Shown: piece after piece, positions 20,690 through 26,834 of the stretch | Numbering within the stretch: position 1 is the stretch's first letter | Layout of the letters: each line of letters opens with the position of its first letter | Source of the DNA: an uncultured archaeon | Lineage (GTDB): Archaea > Thermoproteota > Bathyarchaeia > Bathyarchaeales > Bathycorpusculaceae | Assembly: GCA_963782915.1 (NCBI GenBank) | Contig: CAWALK010000020.1 | Location: 320,001 to 384,000, forward strand | Direction of reading: 5' to 3' | DNA: 64,000 nucleotides | Made by a program: the position numbers and the translations under genes | The notes under the pieces: model-generated | Told to the model about the DNA's origin: nothing | The model's input: the letters and a program-made list of their open reading frames with translations, nothing else | The model's database searches: none

Positions 20690-20767
20690 GGGTCCGTGAC
20701 GCAGTACGGATAGCGTGTCAGCCTTCTAAGCTGAAAGTCAAGGGTTCAAATCCCTTCGGACCCGCCA
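20690..20767 (+). tRNA. tRNA-Arg (TCT)
   Basis: Acceptor GGGTCCG/CGGACCC, anticodon arm TCAGC-CTTCTAA-GCTGA, GTTCAAATC T-loop, encoded CCA. Confidence 0.96.
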
Positions 20768-21047
20768 TATTACTCACTTTAGAGCTTAATTCTGCATTTA
20801 CTAGGTCAACATTATCTATGTGACCATTATGACCAATTTCCGATTTATCTGTAGGTAATTCAATAAGTTTGCTGTTAATATACTCTATAGATTGTTGATG
20901 ATATTCAAATTGTGCTTTACCATTCTGTCTGCCAATATAATGTCTAGCTCTACCATAAGATAACTCCCCATTGCTCCTAAAGAATAGTTGAATTGTAGAA
21001 ACTTTGCCGCATTCTTCACACTCAAACTGTAAACACTTAATCTTCAT
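20718..21047 (-). CDS. Hypothetical CxxC protein at island edge, reading into the antisense of the tRNA
   Basis: CEECGK motif; C-terminal MAGPKGFEPLTFSLEG is the tRNA antisense translation. Confidence 0.6.
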   Translation of the reverse strand: MKIKCLQFECEECGKVSTIQLFFRSNGELSYGRARHYIGRQNGKAQFEYHQQSIEYINSKLIELPTDKSEIGHNGHIDNVDLVNAELSSKVSNMAGPKGFEPLTFSLEG

Positions 21048-21167
21048 ACCAATTCCTTCTACTTGGAGCTGGCTGGAGAGCTAGAAGAGGTATTTAATGA
21101 CCCCTAAAGAACAATTTTGGAGTGTTAGTTTAGTTAACTTCTTAAGGTTAACTAACTTACATAGTTA

Positions 21168-21467
21168 GTGATTGTAATGGTTGAATTATCTCCATTGGCT
21201 GAGATACTTTTTTTCCTTCAATATCTCATGTTACCATTAATTCCTTTTGTTGTTGGAGGAATTTTGTTCTATTTTAAGCCTAAGCATAGAGTGAGCATTG
21301 GAATATCATTGATTTGTTTTGGAGTTCTTAAATTATTATTTGTGTTTAATGAGTATTGGTATCTGTATATGGCATATGGTTTCTTTGGTTTTCTGACAAT
21401 ACTTCTAGGGGTACTCTCTGTTCTTTACCCCAAAATGCTAAGCAAAGACAATAGAATTAAGAACTAG
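21168..21467 (+). CDS. Small membrane protein (cassette 1)
   Basis: Three hydrophobic segments; TAG stop lies inside repeat 2. Confidence 0.7.
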   Translation: MIVMVELSPLAEILFFLQYLMLPLIPFVVGGILFYFKPKHRVSIGISLICFGVLKLLFVFNEYWYLYMAYGFFGFLTILLGVLSVLYPKMLSKDNRIKN

Positions 21468-21763
21468 TTTTGGAGCGTAACTCTGCTTTGTTTTCTCTTC
21501 TTATTAATACAATGAAGATAGCATTACCTATCAATGTAACGATGAATGCAAACAATGGGTAATTCCACAATGGTGTCTCCAACTCCTGTTGGTGTATATT
21601 CTATTGGACCTATGTATTTTGTGCTTATAAAAATACCAACTGAGCTCACCACTTCATTTGTGTTTATTAGTTCTGATAAAACAAATTGGCTAGACAAGAC
21701 TAATACTAAACTCATAACAACATTGAAAACAATCATATTTGTTGTTAACTTACTGAATGTCAT
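21457..21763 (-). CDS. Small two-TM membrane protein (cassette 2; frameshift near 21570)
   Basis: N-terminal TM; shifted frame gives NYPLFAFIVTLIGNAIFIVLIRRE ending at a TAA inside repeat 2. Confidence 0.6.
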
Positions 21764-21912
21764 AATAGCTATTGCTTCTTTGTCTGCTTATAAAATTAAG
21801 GCATATTCACTAAAGACGCTAATCATCTAGTACAGCAACCAATCATTAAGAACTATTTTTAGAGCATAGGCTTGAGGGATGAAAAATCTATTATAGCTTA
21901 GACTACTGAAAG

Positions 21913-22212
21913 ATGGCTATGCATAAAATAGCTAAGATTGCTATGGTAACCAATCTTATCTTAGCTCTGCTTTTTATTTATTCCAACTTATTAGTTTGGG
22001 ATGTCTTCAATGGCAATAATGCTTTACATAGGACTGAGTTTGCTACTCATTGGGGATTCAATAACTATCTCTTAACATTCTATGACCATTTACCTGATGG
22101 TAGTGTTGGAGTTGTACAGGGAATTTTTATTTACCCAAATTTCCCAATCTGCGTATTCTTTGTTGCTCTAGCAGTAAATCTATTCTTTATCTATAAACTG
22201 AGCAAGAAATGA
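21913..22212 (+). CDS. Small two-TM membrane protein (cassette 3)
   Basis: TM-loop-TM; PNFPICVFFVALAVNLFFIYKL resembles the cassette 2 C-terminus. Confidence 0.7.
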   Translation: MAMHKIAKIAMVTNLILALLFIYSNLLVWDVFNGNNALHRTEFATHWGFNNYLLTFYDHLPDGSVGVVQGIFIYPNFPICVFFVALAVNLFFIYKLSKK

Positions 22213-22275
22213 TAAGACCATTAAGAACTAGTTTTGGAGCGTTAGATTTCTATAATTCAGGTATGATCTTATTGA

Positions 22276-22401
22276 TTAAACAGTAATTTTGAAGCTTTTA
22301 TGGCATTTATCGCAATCATAGACTTGGATAAAGAAAGCACTGTTCTTTAGTTCTCTTGATGGGGTTGTAACTTCGTTTTCGCAATTGGGACATTTTGCCA
22401 C
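22276..22401 (-). CDS. 41-aa zinc-ribbon microprotein (not in ORF track)
   Basis: MAKCPNCENEVTTPSRELKNSAFFIQVYDCDKCHKSFKITV; paralog at 26484-26609. Confidence 0.8.
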   Translation of the reverse strand: MAKCPNCENEVTTPSRELKNSAFFIQVYDCDKCHKSFKITV

Positions 22402-22526
22402 AGGTATCAGTAACTTCAGCGCTTACTCACATTCGGAATATGAACATTGCCCTCTGGCGTTGCCCTAATAATCCAACAAACTATTGATGCTAATCATCTA
22501 TACCCCTATCATACTACTCTTGGGGG

Positions 22527-23339
22527 TTATCCAATTTGGAATGCCCTCATTGAAACCGAGCCATTCTGGAAACCCTCATGAATGAACCTTAGCTTATCCT
22601 CTTTTCGCTGGAGACCAATTGCGTAAATCATTGGCAAGTAATGGTCTTGAGTGGGCACCGCATAGACTGCTTCTTTTCCTAACTGGAGGTAATTAATGAG
22701 TGCTTGATGATCCCTTGAAACTAGAGCCTGCTTGATTTTCCCGTCAAATTCTACAGCCCAATCAAACGGTTCGGCATCTATATCAAAATCTATCACCCCT
22801 AAATTGTGGACAATGTTGCCGCTGCCGATAATCAGTACCCCTTTCTCCCTAAGAGGCGCAAGCTCGGAGGCTAACCTGTAATGGTACTCGATGGGTTTTG
22901 GGTTCCAATTATTGTAGGGCGAGTAGTCTAAGCTCATTTCATAGACTGGGATGTTGGCTTCTGGGTACATGTGCTTTAGAACTGCCCATGCTGCATGGTC
23001 AAGCCCCCAATCGCCGCATTTTACTTCGGTTGATTTGACGGTGTTTATTGTTAATTGGGCATCTTTTGGGGCGCCTGGGCTGGGGTAGTTGGTTTGGTAT
23101 AGTTCGTCTGGGAAACCGTAGAAGTCATAGATTGTTTTGGGTTTGTTTGTGCATGTGACGTATGTGCCGTCTGTTAGCCAGTGGGCGGAGATTACAAGTA
23201 TTGCTTTTGGCTGGGGGATTTCTTTGGCTGCCTTAACCAAGCTGCGGGTATAGCTGTTATCTAAGATTATGTTCATGGGTGAGCCATGCCCTATGAAGAG
23301 AACGGGCATAATTTCGGCTTGTTTTGGCATTCCAGTCAC
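22527..23339 (-). CDS. ygiD: DODA-type (YgiD/LigB) extradiol dioxygenase
   Basis: FIGHGSPM, ISAHW, YDFYGFP, GLDHAAW, GSGNIVHNL, PTQDHYLP. Confidence 0.9.
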   Translation of the reverse strand: MTGMPKQAEIMPVLFIGHGSPMNIILDNSYTRSLVKAAKEIPQPKAILVISAHWLTDGTYVTCTNKPKTIYDFYGFPDELYQTNYPSPGAPKDAQLTINTVKSTEVKCGDWGLDHAAWAVLKHMYPEANIPVYEMSLDYSPYNNWNPKPIEYHYRLASELAPLREKGVLIIGSGNIVHNLGVIDFDIDAEPFDWAVEFDGKIKQALVSRDHQALINYLQLGKEAVYAVPTQDHYLPMIYAIGLQRKEDKLRFIHEGFQNGSVSMRAFQIG

Positions 23340-24173
23340 TTTTTAGCTTTTATGAAAGTTCCCTCTTCCAGCTCTTCGTAAGCTTGGTCTAATTCTTCTT
23401 CGGTATTCATCACAATTGGTCCTCTCCACGCTACAGGCTCATTTAGCGGTTCACCTGACACAAAAAGAAAACGACAGCCACCTTTAGAGCATATCTTAAC
23501 TAAGTCGCCTTCACCGAAAACTACACACTGCCCCTGTTCAACGGTTTTGCCTTGAATCTCCGCAGAGCCCTCAACAATGTAAGCAAAACACAGTGTCATT
23601 CTTTGGCGTTGCATGCTCGAATATTTCACCAGCCGTTAACTCGACATCAAAATATTCAATATCAATCGCTAAATCCCGAACAGGACCCTGAATTCCACCC
23701 ACCCTACCCGCTATAACCTTAATCTTTGCTTCGTCTTTGTTGACCGTTGGAATCTGCTCTTTAACTATGCCCCGATATTTCGGGTCAACCATCTTTTTCT
23801 TTGCTGGCAAATTCACCCATAACTGAAAACCCTGCATCAAACCCTCATACTTCTGCGGCATTTCCTGATGAATAATACCCGAACCCGCAGTCATCCACTG
23901 AACATCCCCCGATTTGATTACCCCTTTGTTACCCATACTATCGCCATGTTCCACTTCGCCCGTCCACATGTACGTGACTGTTTCCATTCCTCTATGGGGA
24001 TGCCATGGGAAGCCTTTGATGTAGTCTTGGGGGTTGTCTGATCCGAAGTGGTCTAGCAGCAAGAAGGGGTCGAGTGTGGATTCATCGTCGTTTCCTAGGA
24101 CTCTTTTTAGTTTGACGCCTGCGCCTTCGAGGGTTGGTTGCCGATTCAAGATTTTGTGTATTTGTCGTTCCAA
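23336..24173 (-). CDS. Pirin family protein (frameshift near 23600)
   Basis: DPFLLLDHF, HPHRGMETVTY, WMTAGSGIIHQE, GPIVMNT. Confidence 0.93.
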
Positions 24174-24377
24174 AAAAATCGCCTCAGAATAAAGGATTTT
24201 TCCCATTTTCTAGTTCCTTGTTCCTGCTAATATTTCTAGTGAAAATTCTCAGCTTAGCATAATCCGCATAGGCTGCCAACACATAACCGATTGCTACATC
24301 GAAAAGTATAATTCACCAACCTTTGTAGGCACCTGACTTACATATCCAAAAAGAACGCCAAAGGTGAACAAAGAAAC

Positions 24378-24782
24378 ATGCCATTGGACTGCGGAAACTG
24401 CTGTAAATGCGAAAACGAATTATGGGGAAGCTTCTATCCAGGGGAAGAATGGAAAATGAAGCATTTCCAAGGCTATGTTTTCCAGCTTGAAGGCGTATGG
24501 TTCTTCCACTCGTGTCCCCACCAGCAGAAAGACGGAAAATGCGGCGTACACGACGAATCTTGGCGCCCAATACAATGCCAAATGTACCCTTGCTACATAA
24601 ATTACCAAGGCGAAGTGGATGTGGATTTTGAGTTGTGCCCAAACGCTAAACAAGTCGATGATGACTTCAAAGCGTGGGTTAAAGGCATGTATACGCAACT
24701 GAATTTGAGTCTTGAAGAGTTGAAGCGTTGGGGGCAAGTTGTGGCTAAATGGAGTGAACCAGCCAAATGCCAAGTCAAGTGA
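24378..24782 (+). CDS. YkgJ-like Cys-cluster protein
   Basis: CGNCCKC, CPH, CGVH..RPIQCQMYP. Confidence 0.75.
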   Translation: MPLDCGNCCKCENELWGSFYPGEEWKMKHFQGYVFQLEGVWFFHSCPHQQKDGKCGVHDESWRPIQCQMYPCYINYQGEVDVDFELCPNAKQVDDDFKAWVKGMYTQLNLSLEELKRWGQVVAKWSEPAKCQVK

Positions 24783-24946
24783 CTACCGCAAGTTCCACTT
24801 TTAATTCGAATACCATCAAGTTCACAAACTAAATCTCGCAGATTTCTGTAACATCAGAAAAAGATAAAACGTTACCGTGGCATGTTAAGTGGGGGTTAAT
24901 TGTCCTGCAGCATAGTAGTCGTATATCTATTCTTGTTACTGTTTTC

Positions 24947-25147
24947 ATGGTGTTGGTTCTTGTTAGCGTTATGTCATTTACTATGGTGTCGATTGCTGCA
25001 GGGTGGACTGATGCTTTTCTCCTTATGTTTACCCGAAATTGGCTTATTGGTGTAGTCGTTGCTTTACCTACTGCTCTGTTAGTTAACATTCCAATAGTGC
25101 GCTTGGTTAGAAGAATCTTCAAGAATAATGAGCTCAACGAAAAGTAA
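24947..25147 (+). CDS. DUF2798-like small membrane protein
   Basis: VMSFTM..GWTDAFL..RNWLIGVVVALPTALL; start may lie further upstream. Confidence 0.6.
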   Translation: MVLVLVSVMSFTMVSIAAGWTDAFLLMFTRNWLIGVVVALPTALLVNIPIVRLVRRIFKNNELNEK

Positions 25148-25169
25148 ATTGAGACAAAAGGTCTGTTAA

Positions 25170-26449
25170 CCCTGAACAGGAACCTAATCCCCAAAAGAAT
25201 ACCCGTTACAACCCCCGACTTAGTCGGGTACTCACTGCTAAAATACAGCGACGGACAAATCCGCTTAATCGTAAAATTCGGCGGCAGATTAGATGAAGCT
25301 ACTTTAGCTAAAGCTGTTAGGTTAGCGTTTGATGCATACCCCGTGCTTGGATGCATGTTTGTAGAAAAACCGTTTCGTCCCTATTGGCAGCGTTGCAGCA
25401 GCCTCCAAGACGCTTTTGAATTCAGTGACAGTCGCTAACCCGGAGCAGGAAGAAGCAACCACCGTTTTTTGCTGGCGCCGCTCGACCCATTTGCGGAGCC
25501 GCAGGTTAAAGTGGGTTTATTCCGCTCGGACGTTGATATTTTATGCATTAAAATGACCCATATTGTCGCGGACGGTGGCGCTTCAATGCAGTATCTCCAG
25601 CTGCTCTCTAGTATATACCGAAAGCTCAAAAAGCAGCTGAATTTTCAGCCCAACCCCAATTTAGGCGGCGGCAGAAGCTACTTTGAGATATTGCGGCACA
25701 CCAGTATACCCAAACTGATGTTATCCTGCGCTCATATTTCAGTGCCCAAAGTCACCTGGCAATTCCTCAAGGCAAACAATGAAAACCTCCGCCCTTGCTT
25801 ACTCATCAAACGCATCGGACCAAAACATTTTCTCCACATCAAAACATATGCAAAGAACAATAACGTAACCATCGGCGATGTTTTACTAACCGCTTACTAT
25901 AGAGCGCTGTTTAAAGTGATTGATCCACCAGAAAACGTTGCCTACGCACTGTTTATTCCTGTTAATCTGCGTAAATATCTTCCAGAAGGCACCCGCAAAT
26001 CAATGGGTATGTTATCAGCGAGCTATTTTGCCAGTATTAAGCATAAAAAAGACGCGCCTTTTGGAGAAACTTTGTCTTTGGTGCATGCTGCTCTGAAGAA
26101 GGAAAAATCAAAACAAACCGAATTAGCCTTAATGTTCGCGATGGAGTTAATTCCTTTTCCCGGTTTTGTTATTCCAAGGGTTATTGGGCCATCGGTTTCC
26201 TCGGTCTCTGCACTGCCTGAATTCTCCAACATTGGCGTAATTGATGCTCAAATCGCCGATTTCGGCGATGTTGCCGTTGAGGAGATATTGTCTGCTGGCC
26301 CAACGATGGCGCCGCCGCTTTTCTGTTTGGGCTCCAATACCTTCAATGGCGAAATGCGACTGACCGTTAGCCTATATTGCAACGATGAATACCGTGTAAA
26401 AGTCGAGGGTTTCTTGGATAGTTTAATTACGGAATTACCGACAAAATGA
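25170..26449 (+). CDS. Stand-alone condensation-domain / CoA-dependent acyltransferase (frameshift near 25430; start approximate)
   Basis: GRLDEATLAKAVR..YPVLG, HIVADG (HxxxDG), VTIGDVLLTA, PVNLRKYL, FSNIG. Confidence 0.8.
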
Positions 26450-26483
26450 TGTTAATCAAGAAATTGGGGTCTACTTATTGGTG

Positions 26484-26609
26484 CTAATGTAGCTCTTTAA
26501 AACTATAGTGACATTTATCGCAGTTATAGGCTTGAATGGTAAATGCACAATTTTTCAGCACCTTTGAGGGCTTGTTGACTTCCATAGCACATTTTGGACA
26601 TATCGCCAC
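26484..26609 (-). CDS. 41-aa zinc-ribbon microprotein (not in ORF track)
   Basis: MAICPKCAMEVNKPSKVLKNCAFTIQAYNCDKCHYSFKELH. Confidence 0.8.
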   Translation of the reverse strand: MAICPKCAMEVNKPSKVLKNCAFTIQAYNCDKCHYSFKELH

Positions 26610-26834
26610 AGAGACACCAACCTTCCTATTGGTTGCTTGCCAGTGATAAGAATCTAATTGACACGGTTATGCAAAAAGAAAGCCTTCCTATTTTGCTGTC
26701 ATGGGCTAGTGTGTATCATAAGCCTGTCTATATGAAATAACAATATATTCTATATCAATGGATAACGCATACATAAAACCGTGCAGGCAAATAAAAACGC
26801 GGAAAAACTCTAATTTGCATGGCGCTAAATAGTT

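Follow-up and report, generated by a model that had tools for sequence, protein, structure and literature searches.

Small cargo genes probably change places at a 26-nt repeat in tRNA-anchored islets of Bathyarchaeia

Introduction

In integrons and in clusters of attC sites lacking integron integrases (CALINs), co-oriented sites bound short units, mostly of one gene, which recur in different arrays; the recombinase gene is transcribed away from the first site, a working integrase is often absent, and neighbouring open reading frames (ORFs) may end inside a site. The same traits are found in the arrays described here. They are represented in a 64,000-nucleotide (nt) stretch of the genome of an uncultured archaeon of the Bathyarchaeia (family Bathycorpusculaceae; assembly GCA_963782915.1, contig CAWALK010000020.1, positions 320,001 to 384,000), hereafter the window, in which direct copies of an asymmetric motif of ~26 nt, referred to as M, lie among small genes beside a tRNA-Arg gene. 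Unlike IntI of integrons, the integrase of the M arrays is of the SSV type (PF16795), with its attachment site (att) within its own gene and a tRNA gene as its target. M is a sequence-conserved, asymmetric 26-mer with no hairpin, whereas attC is conserved in structure; the genes of M arrays lie in either orientation, apparently with promoters of their own, rather than as promoterless co-oriented cassettes behind a Pc promoter; and the platform is anchored at tRNA genes. The M system is integron-like in its working, but it has none of the defining features of an integron, namely IntI, the attC hairpin and promoterless co-oriented cassettes.

The M system belongs instead among the SSV-type ("suicidal", class I) integrase elements. 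In these, att lies inside the int gene, and integration splits the gene into an N-terminal part, Int(N), and a C-terminal part, Int(C) (PMC7253208; PMC8371274; here and below, citations refer to parts of the sources named). SSV1/2, pTN3 and pT26-2 share with the present family an int gene that carries att and splits on integration into a tRNA gene, and also the decaying fragments left at tRNAs, and Int(N) and Int(C) of different origins are reassorted among such elements (PMC7253208; PMC8371274). The hosts described in those parts are hyperthermophiles (PMC7253208; PMC8371274), whereas the hosts here form a mesophilic genus of soil and peat Bathyarchaeia; the integrase N-domain differs too: four strands and a helix are predicted, C-C-C-H residues are conserved, and no PDB structure matches clearly. 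For neither Bathyarchaeia nor SSV-type elements do the portions of the literature that our search covered describe cassette arrays or a repeated motif at junctions.

Other systems offer partial parallels. In pdif sites, a 6-bp spacer separates two inverted arms, and the sites on either side of a module alternate in orientation. They and other Xer-exploiting elements resemble M in that short sites delimit exchangeable gene modules and a recombinase acts, or at M may act, in trans; M differs in having no inverted arms and only direct copies. In conjugative plasmids of Sulfolobus, rearranged or deleted regions are reportedly bordered by palindromic "recombination motifs", short and conserved like M; M arrays are tRNA-anchored and hold single small genes, and are not large conjugative plasmids. 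Stoperators of mycobacteriophages are ~13-14 bp long and oriented with transcription. Like M, they are asymmetric, multi-copy sites in short intergenic spaces, often at gene ends, with one copy at the early promoter (PMC9283540), whereas M has 26 nt, ignores gene direction in its orientation and marks mosaic breakpoints. Finally, Int(pTN3), an integrase of the SSV family in Thermococcus, recombines non-att sequence with the outcome of homologous recombination, using identical segments of at least 104 bp (PMC5495485); M, at which a related integrase may act, has 26 bp and is often imperfect.

Exchange of cargo units at the repeat

The consensus of M is ACCATTAAGAAC-TAA-TTTTGGAGCGT. Its conserved core of ~26 nt comprises ACCA or ATCA and a 22-mer, and conservation ends sharply at ...GCGT. 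The window holds the following copies:

21100..21125, plus strand: M1, degenerate, subtype ACCCC-TAAAGAAC-AA-TTTTGGAGTGT
21453..21478, plus strand: M2, strong, position weight matrix (PWM) score 37.3
21842..21867, plus strand: M3, two mismatches in the 22-mer, PWM 35.2
22217..22242, plus strand: M4, perfect, PWM 43.5

The four same-orientation repeats that a sequence-only reading of this stretch had reported, at spacings of 352, 389 and 375 bp, are confirmed, as three strong copies and one degenerate one. The pattern TTAAGAACNNNTTTTGGAGCGT is matched on the plus strand without mismatch at 21457 and 22221 and with two mismatches at 21846; 0.04 matches are expected by chance, and 0/100 shuffles gave three or more. 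The copy at 21105 is missed at up to three mismatches. It has a 2-nt centre and a spacer one base shorter, aligns with the 22221 copy over 33 nt at 73%, and represents a subtype that recurs beside the int promoter of another element in this genome (G000:C24) and in metagenome contigs.

Comparison of 52 M copies with their 350-nt flanks gave 43 pairs alike on the left flank only and 16 on the right only, with no genuine both-side pair (three apparent cases are overlapping neighbours in one locus); in most right-flank pairs, homology begins 1-20 nt past M. Among 17 pairs of recent relatives, defined by at least 88% identity over at least 40 nt abutting M, 8 are left-only, 8 right-only and 1 alike on both sides, so that 16/17 are one-sided, and their alignments run at near-identity up to and through M and are unrelated from the first base beyond. 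Three contigs from different samples share a 317-bp M-to-M unit at 93-97% identity; it contains a minus-strand membrane-protein gene with its promoter (promoters here and below were read from the sequence), and beyond its two M copies the contigs are unrelated. Both outer flanks are likewise unrelated for a second shared unit (257/263 bp, 86%). In all, 54 unique M-to-M units of 229-2129 bp were collected. Empty and filled states can be set side by side: the int promoter is followed by M and a sequence X in one genome (G013) and by M, two genes, a further M and X in another (G028), and a single M in G012 corresponds to M, 1.3 kb and M on contig C2 of the window's own genome (G000).

Rare variants of the left end of M (TCCA..., GTCATTA...) are common to pairs with a shared left flank, and rare right-end variants (...GAAG..., ...CGG) to pairs with a shared right flank. 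End variants thus travel with the flank on their own side, which puts the exchange points inside M. Mismatches in the left and right halves of M number 11 and 6 in left-sharing pairs and 17 and 6 in right-sharing pairs, counts that are weakly informative because indel variants inflate them. Cassette exchange at the site, as the sequence-only reading had proposed, is well supported by these comparisons, with units found in different contexts and homology ending at M, and M itself is very likely the exchange junction.

Adjacent M copies within 2.5 kb of each other are co-oriented in 74 cases and opposite in 1, and always point away from Int(N). The single opposite pair lies on both sides of a tRNA-Pro gene (L138, G130:C1, 6038-8424), each copy facing outwards, as though the tRNA gene had acquired islets on either side. 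Around 68 M copies, the neighbouring genes are convergent in 19 cases, divergent in 11 and tandem in 16 and 9; left neighbours are 37 plus and 26 minus, right neighbours 29 plus and 28 minus. Orientation of M is therefore uniform within arrays whichever way the genes point, which makes it a property of the DNA array and not of transcription.

Distribution of the repeat

With at most two mismatches, M occurs in 15/36 congeneric Bathyarchaeia genomes and in 0/24 genomes from 11 other families of the order, against 0-1 matches per genome for a reversed-pattern control; the genus sample has one genome per species. Among 185,579 species, each represented by one genome, exact matches numbered 16, of which 14 fall in Candidatus Bathyarchaeia/Bathyarchaeota records, mostly metagenome-assembled genomes from soil, peat and wetland, and the remaining 2 are single matches in bacteria, about the number due to chance. 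Exact copies are also present in 53 metagenome contigs. Among 54 metagenome and viral contigs with M, a tRNA gene is found in 18 and an Int(N)-like sequence in 20, and neither a relative of Int(C) nor a circular contig is among them. The tRNAs beside M are Arg-TCT, Arg-CCT, Gly-TCC, Gly-CCC, Pro-TGG, Ser-GCT, Ser-TGA, SeC and Thr. Many related genomes thus have the site in co-oriented arrays whose content varies, the recurrence that the sequence-only reading had asked to be checked, and the arrays lie beside a tRNA and a recombinase gene. Fixed cassette order, or a motif common outside such arrays, had been named as grounds for rejecting exchange; neither is what we find, and strong copies in the window's genome are confined to two AT-rich islets, the one in the window and one on contig C2.

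The second islet (G000 contig C2:20780-23550; L007 6780-9550) has three strong and at least two degenerate M copies, with no tRNA within 16 kb. Its cargo consists of a paralogue of the window's gene A (see below), a zinc-ribbon unit and two secreted proteins that appear frameshifted. The C-terminal tails of the latter (PEF, a hydrophobic segment and basic residues) resemble archaeosortase sorting signals and match no NCBIfam family.

The integrase fragment and the integrated element

Between the tRNA gene and the first repeat lies a 109-aa (amino acid) ORF on the minus strand that the sequence-only reading had overlooked when it placed no recombinase nearby. It is an SSV-type integrase fragment, truncated in the window, whose known target is the tRNA gene and not the repeat. 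The features concerned are:

20690..20767, plus strand: tRNA-Arg(TCT), integration target, attL side (ARAGORN; Rfam tRNA, 68.3 bits)
20718..21047, minus strand: Int(N), N-terminal fragment of an SSV-type tyrosine integrase, 109 aa, an ORF running into the tRNA gene
21091..21098, minus strand: TATA-like box TATTTAAT of the putative int promoter, adjoining M1

Int(N) begins MKIKC... and ends ...GFEPLTFSLEG within the tRNA-Arg gene, overlapping its 3' half in antisense, and three congeners (G020, G034, G010) have the same layout of an ORF running into tRNA-Arg. A database search found an unsplit protein of 395 aa, P0001 (PF16795, precomputed), whose N-terminus aligns with 92% of the fragment at 54% identity; Int(N) itself matches no Pfam family. 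The counterpart of the fragment can be seen in G034, in which a second minus-strand ORF begins 2.5 kb further on, at a partial duplicate of the tRNA, with MVAGVGFEPLTLSLE... This Int(C) starts with the same att/tRNA-encoded peptide (GFEPLTLSLE) with which Int(N) ends and matches PF16795, "Archaeal phage integrase", at 40.6 bits (cut-off 27). The order in G034 is Int(N), M, cargo, Int(C), with a duplicated tRNA segment, and partial tRNA-Arg duplicates (att repeats) are present in the congeners G034, G007, G035, G016 and G021. P0001 has matches in 78/120 genomes of the genus; among the 150 matches listed, N- and C-terminal parts are joined in one open frame in none. As to a free or viral form, IMG/VR gave one weak match, and viral contigs contain no relative of the unsplit integrase.

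Given that the ORF at 20718-21047 is Int(N) of an SSV-type integrase, we are highly confident that the AT-rich block is what remains of an integrated element, without Int(C) and attR. The window holds a remnant islet of tRNA-Arg, Int(N) and cargo, and not a complete SSV-type element. The block begins, as had been noted, just after the tRNA 3' end, with a GC content of 0.31-0.34 over ~20800-22400 against 0.43-0.49 outside. No Int(C) was found in the window and no attR remnant in 20800-26000 (20-nt pieces of the tRNA, up to three mismatches), and an Rfam scan of the window gave the tRNA only. No public read run contains the islet (word shares 0.05-0.08, with no RNA run listed as containing it); contigs from these reads cover only the tRNA and the islet edges and show no joints, and so bear on neither circles nor variants nor expression.

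Across the family, Int(N) is intact over at least 95 codons in 24 distinct, aligned loci (e.g. L135:7276-7560, L067:6024-6308) with 33-63% identity to the window copy; Q20, F22, Y31, R35, H36 and Y49 are invariant and C5, C10 and C13 nearly so. Once split off, Int(N) may serve a function of its own. An AlphaFold model of the N-domain, good for residues 1-66, shows the four-stranded sheet and helix with the conserved C-C-C-H residues, at a mean predicted local distance difference test (pLDDT) score per 10-residue block of 91-96 for residues 1-60 and 66 for residues 61-70. Compared with known structures as a candidate lambda-type arm-binding domain, it has no clear PDB match: the best Foldseek result is ORF131 of Pyrobaculum spherical virus (E 0.11, TM 0.38), and the best VIA-align Z is 4.2.

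Two intact split-integrase elements in the genus have no M. One lies at tRNA-Arg in G035 (L074, G035:C1, 2305-8503) and has a different, non-MKIKC Int(N); the other lies at tRNA-Pro in G075 (L134, G075:C15) and has an Int(N) of the MKIKC type. M thus goes with one lineage of the integrase family, or with its promoter module, and not with every tRNA-integrating element of the genus. The window's own genome has a further element at tRNA-Gly(TCC) (G000 contig C24:151783-154741), 2.9 kb long and complete-looking but decayed, with a premature stop in Int(N), a frameshift in Int(C) and perfect 42-bp att direct repeats, whose translation, GRRLVWFRTLAFQ, is also encoded within P0001. It is the sole case seen of M inverted beside the int TATA box, and the copy is degenerate.

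Cargo genes of the islets

The remaining features of the block, and the host gene that follows it, are:

21177-21467, plus strand: gene A (unit 1), 96 aa, three hydrophobic segments (ORF list)
21457..21763, minus strand: gene B (unit 2), membrane-protein gene in two overlapping frames (79 aa and 41 aa)
21913-22212, plus strand: gene C (unit 3), 99 aa, two hydrophobic segments (ORF list)
22276..22401, minus strand: zinc-ribbon protein (unit 4), 41 aa, four cysteines (ORF list)
22480..22500, plus strand: right edge of the islet, a truncated "class J" flank, which normally precedes M (repeat match within the window), followed by host DNA
22527-23339, minus strand: LigB-family gene, host DNA

The sequence-only reading had given each interval one membrane-protein gene of ~100 aa in either orientation. 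This describes genes A and C; the middle gene, B, is in two frames (21524-21763 and 21457-21582), with one hydrophobic segment in each piece, and is probably frameshifted. As that reading had also stated, the stops of the first two cassettes lie inside the second repeat: the TAG of gene A at 21465-21467 and the minus-strand stop of gene B at 21457-21459 both fall within M2. The three genes are unrelated to one another, TATA-like boxes precede individual cassette genes, and no cassette protein has a Pfam or NCBIfam match above cut-off. Gene A has a paralogue, 75% identical, behind another M in the second islet (G000:C2, L007 7270-7563). Homologues of gene C with 34-45% identity stand directly behind M elsewhere (L012/L056, L136, L119, L040); its relatives are found behind the M directly beside the int promoter in G007 and in three other contexts. 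Upstream of gene B, 21790-21845 belongs to the conserved left flank of M that we call "class J".

The zinc-ribbon gene is the most frequent companion of M arrays, with tblastn matches of 40-61% identity at more than 25 M loci, and forms a 273-bp M-to-M unit in G016 and L120, tandemly duplicated in the latter. The family has ~10 paralogues in the window's genome, with the conserved pattern CPxC...P.R.L.N..F....Y.C..C. A second copy of the 41-aa protein, 66% identical, lies in the window at 26496-26609 on the minus strand, with no M nearby, in another AT-rich dip (GC 0.37 at 26400-26799). In G030, the first cargo gene behind the M beside tRNA-Arg (L039 3885-4622, G030:C3) encodes a TIR-domain protein (PF13676, E 1e-9); islets can thus carry candidate defence genes.

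Beyond the right edge, synteny with LigB orthologues of five congeners begins at 22524-22528. Neither a tRNA nor M lies beside the LigB-family gene in these five, and a positional comparison at this gene is therefore impossible.

Proposed mechanism and alternatives

The block at 20768-22500 is most probably what is left of a small mobile element that integrated into tRNA-Arg(TCT) of a bathyarchaeon. In this element family the SSV-type integrase gene contains the attachment site, so that integration splits the gene; Int(N) has been retained in the window, and Int(C) and the second att copy have been lost. At M, cargo units with one or a few small genes each (for membrane, surface and zinc-ribbon proteins, sometimes defence) very likely join, get lost or swap. 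Recombination between co-oriented copies would insert or delete M-to-M units and so build tRNA-anchored arrays that are integron-like in outcome. A recombinase acting in trans may catalyse the exchange, as opposed to general short-homology recombination, and the most plausible candidate is an intact integrase from this family. M is conserved where its flanks have diverged beyond recognition, and its conservation has a sharp edge; because of both, it would appear to be recognised by a protein. As a working model we lean slightly towards an exchange junction with a catalysed reaction at M; that this reaction is a dedicated, site-specific one is possible, though we would not expect it. A more far-reaching proposal, and a speculative one, is that of an archaeal gene-capture platform independent of integrons, in which the remnant of a suicidal SSV-type element at a tRNA serves as landing pad and a recombinase of the family acts on a 26-nt non-palindromic site, reshuffling single-gene cassettes. 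That recombinase could be a full-length integrase from an incoming element, possibly aided by intact Int(N).

Several points weigh against a catalysed exchange at M. The sole recombinase nearby targets the tRNA and is split in the arrays, hence presumably inactive, and no excised circle, circular contig or unsplit int beside M was found among the 54 contigs. M has no arm dyad, hairpin or fixed centre and resembles no known core site of tyrosine or serine recombinases. Elements with both int halves have 0-2 M copies and islets without int(C) up to 5-6, a difference for which no model here accounts fully. A regulatory site would explain equally well why M stands at a constant 5 bp from the TATA boxes of two different leftward genes, int and the zinc-ribbon gene. 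Some of the mosaic evidence comes from short metagenome contigs, in which the repeat could seed chimeric joins; several one-sided pairs do, however, involve contigs of ~47-725 kb (L063/L138, L110/L135, L045/L047, C2/L041). The ORF calls behind the gene-orientation counts are mechanical and crude, and the M counts are not independent events because the sample has one genome per species and the genomes are related.

The strongest rival reading, which we hold to be unlikely all the same, takes M for an operator-type site of an element or host protein that controls the int and zinc-ribbon promoters and perhaps blocks read-through; the mosaic would then be incidental, with M as the sole repeated sequence. 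It draws on the placement of M. Immediately before M, 22 of 95 unique strong copies by pattern, and by eye some others, have ...CTGGTCAACTTTGGATATAAAG-ACCA, a layout that sets a TATA box at a fixed distance of 5 bp from M and serves a leftward gene, either Int(N) or the 41-47-aa zinc-ribbon protein. A further 32, the window's M3 included, follow the "class J" stretch, which resembles the promoter region of a small leftward gene for a membrane protein. The module of promoter and M is kept while Int(N) diverges to 33-63% identity, and a neighbour's stop codon lies inside M in 20/68 copies, much as the asymmetric multi-copy sites of monomeric phage repressors often overlap stop codons (PMC9283540). 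However, 41/95 strong copies, the window's M2 and M4 among them, stand behind the 3' end of a rightward gene and have no leftward promoter. A regulator would not require an orientation that is independent of the genes and yet uniform in arrays (74:1), nor is a regulator candidate specifically linked to M. Candidates for an element-encoded repressor would be the Int N-domain and the 41-aa zinc ribbon. Exchange at a 26-bp, often imperfect repeat in 16/17 recent pairs is, moreover, much to ask of general homologous recombination.

Two related candidates were rejected. The zinc-ribbon protein is not a convincing specific M-binding regulator, as most of its ~10 paralogues in the window's genome have no M upstream. 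M is not an archaeal promoter of rightward genes either: TTAAGAAC is a poor TATA box, and the distance to gene starts varies over ~20-100 nt.

Conserved boundary sequences have been proposed to shuffle modules in mosaic phage genomes. M as a passive boundary of this kind, with no protein partner and with modules shuffled by short-homology recombination or template switching, is improbable in our judgement. Recombination between repeats would suffice for the mosaic and for filled and empty sites, and co-orientation follows automatically from insertion and deletion between direct repeats. A neutral 26-mer would not, however, remain near-invariant across species whose flanks are unrecognisable, nor would its conservation be expected to stop abruptly at ...GCGT.

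As a transcription terminator or an insulator between independent units, M is very improbable. It does lie between units, has a T4-T5 run, and is often the place in or at which neighbouring genes end. That run is short and confined to one strand, though, whereas genes approach from both sides, 11/68 copies lie between divergent genes, and the conserved G/C-rich right arm has no role in archaeal intrinsic termination as generally known. With no fixed distance to rightward starts and a run of only 4-5 T on one strand, a plain promoter or terminator role is unlikely.

Scarcely credible is a site of the Xer/dif type for the host XerA, which the sequence-only reading had proposed, or an attC-like folded integron site, which it had already set aside. 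Direct arrays of M do delimit gene modules, and classical integrons have been reported in Archaea (10.1101/2022.02.06.479319). A dif-type site has two inverted arms of ~11 bp around a 6-8-bp spacer. XerA binds the inverted repeats of dif (PMC8371274). The 95-copy consensus of M has no such repeats: its left arm, CCATTAAGAAC, does not resemble ACGCTCCAAAA, which is the right arm in reverse complement. The variable centre that had been noted stands (TAA, TAG, TAT and others); the conserved arms around it are not inverted repeats. The partial dyad around CTAG (AACTAGTT) is a local feature, since the centre is mostly TAA in relatives, and with it falls the arm-spacer-arm layout of a tyrosine-recombinase core site. 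Single-stranded DNA folds of the four window copies with 20 nt on either side, on both strands, are no better than those of shuffles (z -0.7 to +1.4), in agreement with the earlier statement that no long hairpin is present, and the associated integrase is SSV-type and not IntI. With neither hairpin nor dyad arms, M is therefore neither attC-like nor dif-like.

Simple tandem gene duplication, to which the duplicated zinc-ribbon unit of L120 might be thought to point, has next to no probability as the origin of the repeats, because the same units sit in unrelated contexts of other genomes and the window's three genes are mutually unrelated.

Significance

Few archaea are as abundant in soils and sediments as the Bathyarchaeia, which have barely been cultured, and we know of almost no account of their mobile elements. 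Throughout a genus, a 26-nt signature now marks an entire family of elements integrated at tRNA genes, together with their cargo, and small accessory genes change hands there as separate units at one defined sequence. M thereby provides a handle for finding islets and for tracking strain-level gene flow in metagenomes, and the 24 intact Int(N) ORFs bear on why "suicidal" integrases persist. Should M prove to be the operator of a regulator, it would represent a rare archaeal control scheme of the stoperator kind. If a recombinase does act on M, a cassette system would have been invented independently of integrons, on a categorically new substrate and with possible use as a tool, and a gene-capture platform of this kind would constitute a new route of gene flow in Bathyarchaeia.

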